This document shows positions 2,043-8,418 of a stretch of DNA of 64,000 nucleotides, piece by piece. Both the position numbers and the translations under genes were made by a program. This stretch comes from Escherichia coli (GTDB lineage: Bacteria; Pseudomonadota; Gammaproteobacteria; Enterobacterales; Enterobacteriaceae): the NCBI RefSeq assembly GCF_044324785.1, contig NZ_CP172127.1. One strand, written 5' to 3'. Each line of letters opens with the position of its first letter. Within the stretch, counting starts at the first letter, position 1. Below the pieces are notes generated by a model. That model did not search any database, was not told where the DNA came from, and worked only from the letters and a program-made list of their open reading frames with translations.

Positions 2043-2639
2043 TTAATCTGATCTCCGCTGCAACAGTTTCGCCAAATTAATCGACTCGACCAGCTGTGTC
2101 CGGTTGATCCGGGGTGAGTTGAGATCCATCACTTTTTGCCATAGTTCGATGGCTTGCGCGTAATTCGCCTGCATAAACGCATCGGAAGCCAGCAGCATCA
2201 GAGCGGTGATTTCGTTAGAGTCCAGCGCGAGGGCTTTGTCGATCATTGTGCGAGTCTGGGCGGTCATATGCTGGCTGGCCTGGTAATAAAGCACCGTCGC
2301 CAGCGCCGCATACAGTTCAGCGTTCTCACCACGTAGTTGCAACGCCTGACGATACGCCAGCAGCGAATTGCTGTAATCGTTTTGCCACAGATAGTACTCG
2401 CCCAGTAACGCCCACTGTTCGCTGTTTTGTGGATTAGCGCGGATTTTATCCTGTAATGCCTGAAGCTGCGCTTCCGGGGTTTGCTGGCTGGCAAACTGAT
2501 GTAGCGGATCGCGCTGACGCTGATATTCCGCACGTACCGCCTGCCATTTTGGACTTAGCAGATAACTGCCAACACAGAGAAATACCATCAATATCGTGAG
2601 TGTTGTCAGCATTTTCACCGGTATTTGAAGCTGTTTCAT
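2043..2639 (-). CDS. nrfG: Formate-dependent nitrite reductase complex subunit NrfG (TPR protein, heme lyase accessory)
   Basis: ORF 2043..2705; start set at internal MKQLQIPVK giving 198 aa with signal anchor and TPR-like repeats; overlaps nrfF stop. Confidence 0.85.
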
Positions 2640-3019
2640 CGCTTCGCCCTTACCCGCCAGAGGATCAGTATCATCAGCAGTAACAACACCACTGGCAGCG
2701 CCCACAACACCAGAGTCTGACCGGTTAACGGTGGGTTATAGCGAACAAAATCTCCGTAGCGTTCGGTCATCCAGCCAATGATTTCGACTTCACTTTTCCC
2801 CTCCGCCACCATGCTGTAAACCTGATGGCGCATACTGACTGCCACCGGCGCATTGGATTCCAGTAAGTTCTGATTCTGGCACTGCGGGCAGCGTAACTGG
2901 CTGGCAATATTTAACGCCTGTTCCTGTTGTTGCGGATTGGCGAATTGCCAGGTGTCTACAACCTGAGCGCGCGCAAAACAGGTAAATAACAGCAGTAGCG
3001 TGAGAAGTCCTTTATTCAT
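2636..3019 (-). CDS. nrfF: NrfF, CcmH-like heme lyase subunit
   Basis: 127-aa ORF with signal peptide and CPQC thiol-redox motif ([11 protein letters not shown]). Confidence 0.9.
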
Positions 3020-4694
3020 CGCGCTTCCTCCCCCGCCATCCGCTTAACAATGCGCCCGCAATCATCAACAATCCTCCCCCCCAGATCCAGCGCACACCGC
3101 TTTGTACATACAAACGAAAAGCGTAACGATCCGGCCCAGTTTTCTCCCCCATGACCGCATACCAGTCATGGATGCCGTTCCAGCGAATTGACGGTTCCAT
3201 CATTTGCTGACGGCGTGCTTCATAAAAACGCCGCTCCGGCGTCAGTTCACCAATACGTTGCTGATGGTCAAACAGTGCCACTATCGCTTTTTCGCTGGTG
3301 TAATTGCCTCTGGCTTGCAGATCGAGACGCTCAAAACGGAAGGTGTATCCTGCCAGCGTCACCTGCTGACCCGGCTGTAAATTCAGGCTGATCTCCTGAC
3401 GGCTGACGCTGGAGACCACGATCCCTGCGGCAAATAACAGCACGCCCGCATGCGCCAGCAGCGCCGGAAGCTGCACGCGTTTGCCAGAGACAAACGTCGC
3501 CAGCACAATCACCACCAGCATCAACAGACCAAACGGTAACGTCGCGCGGTTAAAATACGGCGCGCCAACGGAGAGGCGTCCCCAGCCCAGCAGGCCGTAA
3601 ATCATCGGATAAAGCGTTCCCACCAGCACGATCAGTAGCACTGCGCAAAACAGCAACAGCGTAGCGAGGATTAACATTTCCCGCGATAACCCCGAAAAAT
3701 GCACCGCCGGGCCACCGTCCCGCGCTCGCCAGCCATACAGAGCCAGAGACGCAAGGCTAATCAGTGCAAACAGGCTGAACAACGGCACGGCGCGGACGTT
3801 ATCCAGCGCGAACGCATGAACCGAAACCAGAATGCCAGAACGGACAATTAAGGTGCCCAGCAATGACAGCATCAGAGTAACTATCGCCAGTAACAGCGAC
3901 CAGTGGCGGTAAATCCCCCGCTGGCGTGTCAGGGACAAACTGTGCAGCAGTGCAGTGGCAGAAAGCCAGGGTAATAAAGAGGCGTTTTCCACCGGATCCC
4001 AGAACCACCAGCCGCCCCAGCCCAGTTCGCAATAGGCCCACCAGGAACCGATGATGATCCCCGCCGCTAATGCGCTCCAGCCAGGTAGTGCCCAGCGCCA
4101 GCAAATTCGGGCGCAGGCACCATCAAACTCGCCGCGCAGTAAACTCGCCAGCGCCACGCTCGCCGCTACCATCAAACCGCCATAGCCAAGGTAAAGCAGC
4201 GGTGGATGAAAGATAAGACCGGGATGTTGCAGCATCGGATTGAGATCGCGGCCTTCGATTGCTGGTGGAAATATCCGCTCGAAGGGATCGGACCACAGCA
4301 CCACAAACAGTAGCAGTGCGGCGAGCATGAGAGATAAAACGGCTAGCGTCAGCGGAAATAGCGGATCGGTTTGCTGCCGATAATACCAGGCAAACAGCGC
4401 GCTCCAGGCGGAAAGCAGCAGCACCCAAAGCAGCAGCGAACCTTCATGACCGCCCCACACCGCTGCCAGTTTGAGTTCCCACGACAGCAGGCTGTAGCTA
4501 TGTTGGGCGACATAAATGACCGAGAAATCGCTGATGAGAAAACAATACGTCAGTACGCCAAAGGCGAGCAGCAGGAGCGCGAACTGCGCCAGAATGCCGA
4601 TGCAAGTGAGTCGCATCATGGCAGGCCAGCGCAACCGCACTCCCGCGAAGGCCGTCAACGGGGTCAACACGTTGACCCCGAGACTTAACAACAA
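3012..4694 (-). CDS. nrfE: NrfE, CcmF-like cytochrome c heme lyase
   Basis: 560-aa polytopic membrane ORF, W-rich heme-handling motif (WGGWWFWDPVEN); exact start uncertain (maximal ORF given). Confidence 0.85.
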   Translation of the reverse strand: MLLSLGVNVLTPLTAFAGVRLRWPAMMRLTCIGILAQFALLLLAFGVLTYCFLISDFSVIYVAQHSYSLLSWELKLAAVWGGHEGSLLLWVLLLSAWSALFAWYYRQQTDPLFPLTLAVLSLMLAALLLFVVLWSDPFERIFPPAIEGRDLNPMLQHPGLIFHPPLLYLGYGGLMVAASVALASLLRGEFDGACARICWRWALPGWSALAAGIIIGSWWAYCELGWGGWWFWDPVENASLLPWLSATALLHSLSLTRQRGIYRHWSLLLAIVTLMLSLLGTLIVRSGILVSVHAFALDNVRAVPLFSLFALISLASLALYGWRARDGGPAVHFSGLSREMLILATLLLFCAVLLIVLVGTLYPMIYGLLGWGRLSVGAPYFNRATLPFGLLMLVVIVLATFVSGKRVQLPALLAHAGVLLFAAGIVVSSVSRQEISLNLQPGQQVTLAGYTFRFERLDLQARGNYTSEKAIVALFDHQQRIGELTPERRFYEARRQQMMEPSIRWNGIHDWYAVMGEKTGPDRYAFRLYVQSGVRWIWGGGLLMIAGALLSGWRGRKRDE

Positions 4695-4749
4695 CGCCAG
4701 AAAACCGACTTCAGGAAGGAATACGTCCAGAAACCACCTCTGTTCTGGC

Positions 4750-6374: not shown

Positions 6375-6937
6375 GGCTGCTCCTTAAGCAACGGAACAGA
6401 CGCCGGGTTAAAGTTCGGATTGGTACGCTGATCGCTGTGGCAATCGACGCAAATCTTAATCCGTCCTTTGTCACTTAACGTCTGCATCGTATCTTGCTGT
6501 GGATGCAGGGAATGGCAGCTGGCGCACGCCACTTTGGTTACGTGGACATCGTGTGGCCAGAACGCTTTTTGCAACTGTTCCGGCAGATGGCAGGACATAC
6601 AGACGCTGTTCTGCTCTCCAACCTTGTACATCGGCTCGTTAAAGCGCATCACATCTTTCACCCCTTCGCGGTGTTGCGGTGATGGCTGGCCGTGACAGTT
6701 GGTGCAGGTGACCGGCAGTTTGTTATTCGGGTTGATAACGGAAGCATGTTTGCCATGCATACCTTCGGTATCTGGTTTATGGCAGTCCAGACAGGCGGCA
6801 TCCGGGTTACGCTGCTGGGTAACTTCGTAGCGATCACCAGATGCCTGCGCCGCAGGGGTAGCGGTAATTCCGTTCAGGCTCCACAACAGGCCCGACGCCA
6901 GCACCCCGGCAGTTAATAACGAACGTAATACGCTCAT
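6371..6937 (-). CDS. nrfB: NrfB, pentaheme c-type cytochrome
   Basis: Signal peptide plus five CxxCH motifs (CLDCH, CTNCH, CMSCH, CASCH, CVDCH); start set at MSVLRSLL (188 aa). Confidence 0.92.
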
Positions 6938-6981
6938 ATTCACTCCATTGTGTTTTCCGCCCCTTGCGAGGCGGAACGGGG

Positions 6982-8418
6982 TTATTGGCTTAACAGACCG
7001 TTTTTACGTGCCTGCTCTTCCCACTGCGGGATCACCGTTTTGATGAAGTCCTGCTTCTCGGCCTTGATTTGTTCCATGTTCAGGCCAATGGCCTGCTGGG
7101 CTTTCTCTTTGGTCGAGATATCCGGGATCTGGATTTCATGGGTGATGCCTTTGGTCGCCAGCAGTCGCGCCAGTTTAGTGCGCGCATCCGCCGCTTTATC
7201 CATCGCCGTACCGAGCATCCTCAGACCTTCTTCCGGTGCGTGCATATGAATGCCGTGGGAAGCGATCGCCAGATCCCAACGCCATTGGGCATGACGGATA
7301 TCGTCCTGAATCGGCTTCATTTCGGCTTCCGTCGCGCCTGCATCCAGCGCCGCTTTCGCTTCGAAGTGAGCGTGAACCAGTTGATCTTCAACCTTGATTT
7401 TCAGGTCGTTAATCGACTGCTTACGTTCCGCGACCACTTTTTGCAAGGCAGCTTTGTCCTGGGTATGGCAGTTCGCACAAGTCTGGGCGAAGTTATCAAA
7501 CGGATTACCAATTTTATGGTCGGTGTAGAGTTTGCCTTCGGCGTTCTGCACTTTTGGCATATGGCAATCGATACAGGTCACGTTGTTTTTGCCGTGAATG
7601 CCCGCTGTCCAGGTTTCATATTCCGGGTGCTGCGCTTTCAGCATTGGCGTTTTCGACAGGGAGTTAGTCCAGTCAGAGAAAGCAATTTTGTCGTAATACT
7701 GCTCCATATTTTCGACTTTCATGCCGTCATCCCACGGGAATTTAACCGCTTTGTTTTTGCCGTCGAAGTAATACTCCACATGGCACTGACCGCAAACCAT
7801 CGATTGCTGGTCGAAACGTCCGGCTTTCTCAAAAGGTTTACCAATGGCTTCCATCGCGCGAGCCGCATACGGACGGGAAAGGGTTAACTCCGGTTTGCCT
7901 TTGGCGAACTCTGGTGAGGCGGTGTTATGGCAATCGGCACAACCTAAGTTGTTGACGATTTCCGGGCCGCCGCGCGCCCATTTTCCGTGGAAGTAGCCAT
8001 CTTCGCCGTCTTTCTGGATCAGACGCGCCACATCCGGGCTTTTACAACTCCAGCATGCCATCGGTAGCGGACCATCTTCAGCGTTTTTCGGCGCACCGGT
8101 GCGCAGGGTTTCACGCACATCGGTCACAGCAAAGGCATGTCCACGCGGCTTGTTGTAATCGCGCGAGAAGGGATACCCCGCCCACAGGATCACCAGCCGT
8201 GGATCTTCCGCCAGGGCGTCAACACGCTCTGACTGTTCCGAGGTGGCTTTCCAGGAGAGATATTGATCGGGATGTTGCGGGGCAAAGGTTTCATTCTTCG
8301 CTTCCACAGTTACAGGTTTTGCGGGAGTAGCCGTTTGTTCAGCGTGAACAGAAGTGAAAAAGAAAAAAGGAATCAATAAGCTGAAGATACGGCGTGCGTT
8401 TATTTTTATCCTTGTCAT
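6982..8418 (-). CDS. nrfA: NrfA, cytochrome c552 nitrite reductase (ammonia-forming)
   Basis: ORF 6982..8451; start set at [10 protein letters not shown] (478 aa); contains the diagnostic CWSCK lysine-ligated heme motif plus four CxxCH motifs. Confidence 0.93.

Follow-up and report, generated by a model that had tools for sequence, protein, structure and literature searches.

Do the seven nrf genes carried by a 64,000-nucleotide stretch of Escherichia coli DNA (contig NZ_CP172127.1 of assembly GCF_044324785.1; the whole stretch is called the window, and positions refer to it) form a complete operon, and where does each gene begin? A preliminary description had proposed a complete nrfABCDEFG operon at positions 2043 to 8418, apparently fully functional and without novelty. 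Judged from its sequence, the region is almost certainly the intact chromosomal nrfABCDEFG operon of this strain, at its usual location, flanked by acs and gltP, and the same evidence supports the view that it would be functional. It is an already known, ordinary core-genome operon for the periplasmic reduction of nitrite to ammonia and has little significance as a finding, the nrf genes being present in more than 99% of complete E. coli genomes and characterized since 1994. We add one refinement: none of the codons ATG, GTG, and TTG is found at the conserved N terminus of nrfE, which most likely initiates at a CTG codon. This start and a hairpin early in nrfE are of modest practical use, the first for annotation and the second as a mechanistic lead, and do not make the operon a new system.

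Extent and integrity of the operon

We rederived the seven genes from the sequence with a table of open reading frames (ORFs) and a scripted check and found nrfA, -B, -C, -D, -E, -F, and -G as consecutive genes on the minus strand. They run from 8418, the A of the nrfA ATG, to 2043, where the nrfG stop codon ends, so that the ends first proposed are exact. Gene order, gene lengths, and neighbors (acs, gltP, and yjcO) are those of K-12 and of strains annotated with the Prokaryotic Genome Annotation Pipeline (PGAP), and the seven genes stand in order on one strand behind a predicted promoter with FNR and NarL/NarP sites upstream of nrfA, as in an enteric nrf operon. All seven proteins score above the curated NCBIfam cutoffs; the E values, 1e-62 to 0, make a chance match no concern. 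Six of them pass an equivalog or exception model of their own subunit, and NrfE passes the NrfE subfamily model NF007691.

The preliminary description had pointed to frameshifts or missing cysteine motifs as what an exact alignment might reveal. Every cysteine motif of the operon is in place, and comparison with E. coli K-12 showed all seven genes to be free of frameshifts, internal stops, and indels. In the K-12 protein alignments, 26 of 2,104 residues differ (11 in NrfE, 3 in NrfD, 1 each in NrfA and NrfB, and none in NrfC, among others), and none of them is a heme-binding, Fe-S, twin-arginine translocation (Tat), WWD, His, or CxxC residue. The overlaps between adjacent genes were also as described: 4 nt each (ATGA) for nrfB/nrfC, nrfC/nrfD, and nrfF/nrfG and 8 nt for nrfE/nrfF. 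Translation is probably coupled at these four junctions. The nrfD/nrfE junction had rightly been left off that list; its gap is 19 nt when counted to the CTG at 4730, and the gap between nrfA and nrfB is 44 nt.

We then compared positions 1700 to 8810 of the window with all complete E. coli genomes. This 7.1-kb region was found in 5,414 of 5,426 genomes at a coverage of at least 80%, with the closest matches being 98.6 to 99.1% identical over the full length and nearly all carriers falling at 95 to 99%. A single genome, that of strain N3 (99.1%), reached at least 99% identity. A best match of 99.1%, with nearly all others at 95 to 99%, marks the region as core E. coli DNA of a lineage without close representatives in the set of complete genomes. 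Codon differences from E. coli strain 18KM2445 comprise 67 synonymous and 17 nonsynonymous changes, a ratio that indicates, at the sequence level, continued purifying selection on the operon. Divergence from the same strain grows along the operon, identity going from 99.7% in nrfA to ∼97.7% in nrfD and nrfG; this gradient and the single match at or above 99% suggest a mosaic or undersampled lineage.

The structural genes nrfA to nrfD

The nrfA gene (6982 to 8418, minus strand, ATG to TAA) encodes the pentaheme cytochrome c552 nitrite reductase of 478 amino acids (aa) and scores 871.6 bits against a cutoff of 595 with NF008339. As described at the outset, NrfA carries one CWSCK (residue 122) and four CxxCH motifs (CADCH at 160, CGQCH at 209, CIDCH at 282, and CANCH at 314), which together hold its 10 cysteines. 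Residues 27 to 478 match the crystallized E. coli NrfA chain 1GU6_A end to end, and a single substitution, A31T, separates the protein from that of K-12. In the K-12 alignment, R106, E215, Y216, K261, Q263, and H264 are found unchanged. Among these, Arg106, Tyr216, and His264 are second-sphere active-site residues, and E215, K261, and Q263 are residues of the neighboring Ca site.

NrfB (6371 to 6937, minus strand; 188 aa; NF008659, 310.6 versus 184) is the pentaheme electron-transfer cytochrome. A motif count returned the five CxxCH motifs expected of it (CLDCH, CTNCH, CMSCH, CASCH, and CVDCH, with 10 cysteines in total), and the protein has a signal peptide in addition to its equivalog score. 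Its mature part, residues 26 to 188, matches PDB entry 2OZY; 1GU6 and 2OZY thus define the mature N termini as residue 27 in NrfA and residue 26 in NrfB.

The nrfC gene (5703 to 6374, minus strand; 223 aa; TIGR03149, 418.7 versus 377.6) encodes a Tat-exported protein identical to K-12 NrfC. The twin-arginine signal SRRQFLTG noted earlier lies at residues 4 to 11, and 16 cysteines form the four [4Fe-4S]-type clusters. NrfC matches the PsrB/"NrfC" chain 2VPW_B. NrfD (4750 to 5706, minus strand; 318 aa; TIGR03148, 467.5 versus 347.6) is the integral-membrane quinol-interacting subunit, and its gene overlaps nrfC by 4 nt. Its score and its position directly after nrfC identify it as a probable polytopic membrane protein of the NrfD family. 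It differs from the K-12 protein at three positions, and we found no PDB relative of it at the sequence level.

The heme-lyase genes nrfE to nrfG

The nrfE gene (3012 to 4730, minus strand) encodes the CcmF-type heme-lyase subunit, with 572 codons without a stop when counted from the CTG at 4730, and scores 1137 against a cutoff of 394 with NF007691. NrfE carries the WWD motif WGGWWFWDPVENASLLPW (WGGWWFWDPVEN), in agreement with the CcmF-like W-rich motif first noted. Four conserved histidines, two periplasmic and two transmembrane, accompany it: His175, His263, His305, and His427 align with His173, His261, His303, and His491 of CcmF. NrfE also matches Thermus CcmF (6ZMQ).

NrfF (2636 to 3019, minus strand; 127 aa; TIGR03147, 209.3 versus 159.2) is the CcmH-like thiol-oxidoreductase subunit. 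The CPQC reported for it is present at residue 44, within a periplasmic CxxC motif (LRCPQC), and the protein matches the CcmH structures 2HL7 and 2KW0. NrfG (2043 to 2639, minus strand; 198 aa; NF007692, 394.8 versus 306) is the tetratricopeptide repeat (TPR) subunit of the lyase; its residues 30 to 198, with the TPR domain, match the E. coli NrfG structure 2E2E (E = 3e-103). In some assemblies, NrfE and NrfF are one fused ORF, of 665 aa in E. coli (proteins P0002 and P0005, among others) and of 737 aa in Salmonella and Citrobacter (P0097, among others). In the Salmonella and Citrobacter fusions, the linker translates a sequence (LPDGAALIRPT...) resembling repetitive extragenic palindromic (REP) elements.

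Several observations weigh against an intact and working operon. Five NrfE residues (H116Y, V151E, T222A, L227I, and F274Y) are lineage specific and absent from both K-12 and strain 18KM2445; none is in a motif, and V151E is a change of charge. We detected no intrinsic terminator after nrfG in a consensus scan and an inverted-repeat search of positions 1690 to 2060, and activity also requires ccm, menaquinone, and formate dehydrogenase, which are located outside the region. One could imagine that the operon, intact as it looks, no longer works properly in this lineage, with V151E or H116Y as possible causes, and that it has entered an early stage of decay like that of nrfE in strain N3, the closest complete genome, where the gene is flagged as frameshifted. 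The N3 frameshift, however, is a run of six G residues where the window has the normal seven (3082 to 3076) and keeps its frame open; the short run in N3 may reflect either an error of sequencing or a genuine phase-type lesion. Different genera have V, A, or T at position 151, NrfE keeps all motif residues and its four CcmF-type histidines, and the 67:17 ratio speaks for ongoing purifying selection. We therefore regard an impaired operon as very improbable.

The start codon of nrfE

Annotations place the start of nrfE at three incompatible positions: CTG 4730 (572 aa, PGAP), GTG 4670 (552 aa, K-12 RefSeq), and a TTG still further downstream (540 aa, other callers). The nrfE frame has a stop at 4763 to 4761 and then no ATG, GTG, or TTG before the TTG at 4694. 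A Shine-Dalgarno sequence, GAGGTG (4735 to 4740, minus strand), lies 4 nt upstream of the CTG.

We then looked into the nrfD-nrfE junctions of 35 species genomes, which were collected with the 3' end of nrfD as the pattern, so that nrfE itself did not bias the sample; the comparison of starts spans about 30 species of Enterobacterales. The arrangement (A/G)GGTG(A/G), 3 to 4 nt, and CTG is conserved in ∼25 species, and the spacer that separates it from the nrfD stop is of variable length. Shine-Dalgarno sequence and CTG are both kept in Escherichia (four species), Salmonella enterica, most Citrobacter species, an Enterobacter sp., Buttiauxella, Trabulsiella, and Intestinirhabdus. In three Citrobacter species the codon itself reads TTG, and in a divergent metagenome allele it reads GTG. 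Pluralibacter offers a GTG one codon downstream of it and C. sedlakii a TTG three codons upstream, and in Entomohabitans and Haemophilus seminalis an ATG stands two codons ahead of the conserved Pro-Glu of NrfE. Residues 2 to 6 of E. coli CcmF (MPEIG) align with residues 5 to 9 of NrfE (LPEVG). Sequence comparison thus makes CTG 4730 most likely the real start of nrfE.

Three points count against this start. The K-12 reference annotates the GTG at 4670, CUG initiation in E. coli reporters is reported in the literature at ∼1 to 2% of AUG initiation, and in the literature searched we found no experimental mapping of the NrfE N terminus, nor anything relevant on the nrfE start codon, a CTG start, or the hairpin described below. 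Translation might then begin downstream, at GTG 4670 or at the TTG of the 540-aa calls, with the 20 upstream codons being a leader conserved for some other reason. The 552-aa entry of K-12 RefSeq, the large clusters formed by 540-aa calls, and the poor performance of CUG as an initiator all favor such a start. Yet the TTG at 4694 is a CTG in Salmonella and so is not conserved as a start, and the GTG at 4670 lies in the loop of a stable hairpin, with the sole purine-rich stretch upstream of it (GGGG) paired in the stem. Between E. coli and Salmonella, the 20 upstream codons show five synonymous and two nonsynonymous changes in the nrfE frame; the peptide that they encode, LPEVGFLALLL, aligns with the N terminus of CcmF and would complete the first hydrophobic helix; and other species have canonical start codons at the upstream position. 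On balance, a downstream start seems unlikely to us.

If the CTG is the true start, NrfE would join the small number of E. coli proteins whose conserved start codon is not AUG, GUG, or UUG, and the K-12 start would be 20 codons off. With CUG initiation at ∼1 to 2% of AUG initiation, such a start would hold lyase synthesis low. We rejected a fusion of NrfD to NrfE by frameshifting, given that the offset from the nrfD stop to the CTG is 22 nt in E. coli and 11 nt in Salmonella; it is also countered by a spacer that ranges from 1 to ∼25 nt and by Intestinirhabdus, where nrfE does not directly follow the nrfD stop. In Intestinirhabdus alba (L026), unrelated sequence separates the nrfD stop from nrfE, which still has its own Shine-Dalgarno sequence, CTG, and hairpin. 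In Haemophilus species, a terminator-like hairpin follows nrfD and nrfE is located elsewhere.

A hairpin early in nrfE

Codons 18 to 24 of nrfE (GGG GTC AAC GTG TTG ACC CCG) can form the hairpin GGGGUCAA-CGUG-UUGACCCC (4660 to 4679, minus strand), a perfect 8-bp stem (a 9-bp palindrome in the DNA) that has the GTG annotated in K-12 in its loop and folds at -12 kcal/mol. Across five genera, these seven codons are the longest run of identical codons in nrfE (the next longest being four), with 22% of the conserved degenerate codons being identical gene-wide. Across 24 species, they rank first of ∼430 seven-codon windows, with a synonymous identity of 0.85 versus a gene mean of 0.56.

In an alignment of 34 sequences, 97.1% of the cells in the stem are paired and three pairs have changed on both sides; the sample consists of related species with few independent events, and the peptide is conserved too. 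None of 500 shuffled controls reached the observed values, and controls slid along the sequence paired in 37 to 60% of cells. The compensatory changes are A-U to G-C in Buttiauxella and Trabulsiella and C-G to G-C in Pluralibacter; a change of C-G to U-G in one Citrobacter also keeps the pair. Loop positions vary freely, and within the clade the other substitutions fall mostly in the loop. The fold of the whole nrfD-nrfE junction is not significant (z = -1.15), and the pairings upstream use nonconserved sequence.

We tentatively propose that nrfE is translated from a CUG start conserved in Escherichia, Salmonella, Citrobacter, and relatives and that, in addition, the hairpin 17 codons downstream of it is a functional RNA element; the two together we hold to be doubtful. 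The identity of codons 18 to 24 may instead reflect protein and codon usage constraints in a transmembrane helix without any functional nucleic acid structure, an explanation to which we give a little less than an even chance. The peptide GVNVLTP is itself conserved, most of the species sampled are closely related members of Citrobacter, Escherichia, and Salmonella, so that the cells are not independent, and relatedness alone can beat a shuffle control. The run nevertheless includes minor codons (GGG and TTG) and is the most synonymously constrained of the ∼430 windows, and where its sequence has changed, in Buttiauxella, Trabulsiella, Pluralibacter, and one Citrobacter, pairing stays in register. 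Slid controls, at 37 to 60% paired, also fall well short of the 97% of the hairpin.

Were the hairpin functional, candidate roles would be to mark off nrfABCD from nrfEFG in mRNA decay or processing, to tune the weak start, and to mask internal starts. It could act as a barrier to 3' exonucleases or as a processing boundary that stabilizes the nrfABCD part of the transcript, and together with the weak CUG start it might set a low ratio of NrfEFG to NrfABCD. Another possibility is that it influences initiation or hides the GUG and UUG codons within the gene. Located at the boundary between structural and maturation genes, the hairpin is a testable candidate for setting different amounts of reductase and lyase. 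The palindrome occurs once in the window, and we accordingly rejected it as a repeated element; we recognized no transcription factor consensus in it.

Promoter and leader of nrfA

Upstream of nrfA, we read from the sequence a NarL/NarP 7-2-7 site, TAACTCT-AA-AGTGGTA (8578 to 8593, minus strand), centered at -74.5 and invariant in Salmonella. An FNR site, TTGAT-TAAA-GACAA (TTGATTAAAGACAA; 8546 to 8559, minus strand), is centered at -41.5 and is identical to that of K-12. The two centers are 33 nt apart, with the NarL/NarP site upstream, and the K-12 nrf promoter (pnrf) has its NarL/NarP site at -74.5 and its FNR site at -41.5, that is, the same spacing (PMC5434802). The core promoter (8511 to 8523, minus strand) has a TG-extended -10 hexamer, TACACA (8523 to 8518), and a predicted transcription start at ∼8511, and its sequence is identical to that of K-12. 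We place the start there because it fits both the FNR center at -41.5 and the GGA of the CsrA site, published at +102 of the K-12 transcript (PMC5434802) and found here at 8410. We could not reconcile the -10 hexamer printed in the paper (TATACT) with TACACA and did not rely on it.

The 5' leader of nrfA (8419 to 8510, minus strand) has predicted hairpins at 8502 to 8471 and 8456 to 8438 and folds at -28.6 kcal/mol (z = -1.9). The CsrA-type GGA, at 8411 to 8409, lies just within the nrfA coding sequence. CsrA represses nrfA expression (PMC5434802), and RyhB represses nrfA (PMC4666370). Promoter and leader are those of K-12 from -172 to +131, including the FNR, NarL/NarP, and CsrA sites; the sole difference in the 450-nt control region between acs and nrfA is an A for G at 8684 (∼-173). 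We rejected an improved -10 element of the enterohemorrhagic E. coli type, the window being identical to K-12 across the core promoter.

Relative to Salmonella, the leader hairpin at 8471 to 8502 shows one G-C to A-U double change, and that at 8438 to 8456 keeps its stem with an altered loop. On the plus strand, the latter resembles an intrinsic terminator (a stem followed by GTTTTTATTG). An 18-codon small ORF annotated in K-12, ytcB (MHLQLIKDNIHSVVICYT; 8515 to 8571, minus strand), is identical here. It lies wholly within the nrf promoter (∼-60 to -4), across the FNR site, a position that rules out its transcription from pnrf. Our literature search for ytcB returned unrelated Bacillus papers only.

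Proposed working of the operon

From what is known of K-12, FNR bound at -41.5 would activate the promoter under anaerobiosis, and NarL/NarP at -74.5 would raise its activity further when nitrite or nitrate is present. IHF and Fis would repress transcription, and CsrA and RyhB would repress expression at the nrfA mRNA. NrfC and NrfD would take electrons from menaquinol and pass them through the pentaheme NrfB relay to NrfA, where heme 1, with its lysine ligand, would be the site of nitrite reduction to ammonium. The four CxxCH hemes would be attached by the general Ccm system, whose genes lie elsewhere, and the CWSCK heme by NrfE (a paralogue of CcmF), NrfF (similar to the CcmH N terminus), and NrfG (TPR). 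Translation of nrfE from CTG 4730 with its own Shine-Dalgarno sequence, 19 nt past the nrfD stop, may yield a low ratio of lyase to reductase.

Quinol oxidation by NrfCD, the NrfB relay, the lysine-ligated heme of NrfA, and the division of labor between Ccm for CxxCH and NrfEFG for CxxCK are described in PMC12285233. That review cites Eaves et al. 1998 and Hussain et al. 1994 for the attachment of heme to the CxxCK motif by NrfEFG, so that the role of dedicated CxxCK lyase given to NrfEFG in the preliminary description is established knowledge. By extension from K-12, six-electron nitrite reduction and NrfEFG-dependent attachment of the CxxCK heme can be expected of the copy in the window.

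Comparison with known systems

The nrf operon of K-12 MG1655 (b4070 to b4076, with pnrf) has the same order, neighbors, protein lengths, overlaps, motifs, and FNR, NarL/NarP, and CsrA sites. It differs by the 26 substitutions, the one promoter base at -173, and a recorded NrfE of 552 aa versus the 572 aa that we favor. The operons of Salmonella enterica and Citrobacter have the same seven genes in order, the same Shine-Dalgarno sequence and CTG at nrfE, and the same hairpin. The Salmonella proteins are 70 to 91% identical to those of the window; the Salmonella operon differs by a 37-nt insertion in the promoter region and by a distance of only 8 nt from the nrfD stop to the CTG. In some Salmonella and Citrobacter records, nrfE and nrfF have REP-like sequence between them or are joined in a fused ORF.

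CcmF, of the system I cytochrome c maturation proteins of E. coli, and NrfE are 37% identical and share the WWD motif and all four histidines, but NrfE is ∼75 residues shorter and ccmF starts with a normal ATG. NrfF is likened to CcmH by its structure matches, and the TPRs of NrfG are like the C terminus of CcmH or CcmI; NrfEFG serve CxxCK, whereas CcmF and CcmH serve CxxCH (PMC12285233). The NrfHA(IJ) system of epsilon- and deltaproteobacteria possesses a homologue of NrfA whose active-site heme likewise has a CxxCK motif (PDB entries 1FS7, 1QDB, and 2J7A). It differs in having the tetraheme NrfH as its quinol oxidase and the system II protein NrfI as its CxxCK lyase (PMC12285233), neither of which is present here.

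Other features of the region

The interval from the nrfG stop to gltP spans positions 1702 to 2042, and no intrinsic terminator or inverted repeat was detected in it. The plus-strand ORFs at 7069 to 7887, 5478 to 6242, 4781 to 5224, and 4371 to 4688 have no Pfam match and were treated as nongenes, as were two minus-strand shadow ORFs, likewise without a Pfam match. An Rfam search of positions 1600 to 8900 found no RNA family at the gathering thresholds or at an E value of 1 or less, except for a spurious long noncoding RNA match (E = 0.43). Matches at the gathering thresholds elsewhere in the window are the small RNA sraL (18142 to 18282), naRNA4 (51122 to 51192), STnc430 (60523 to 60671), and a lysine riboswitch (62566 to 62762).

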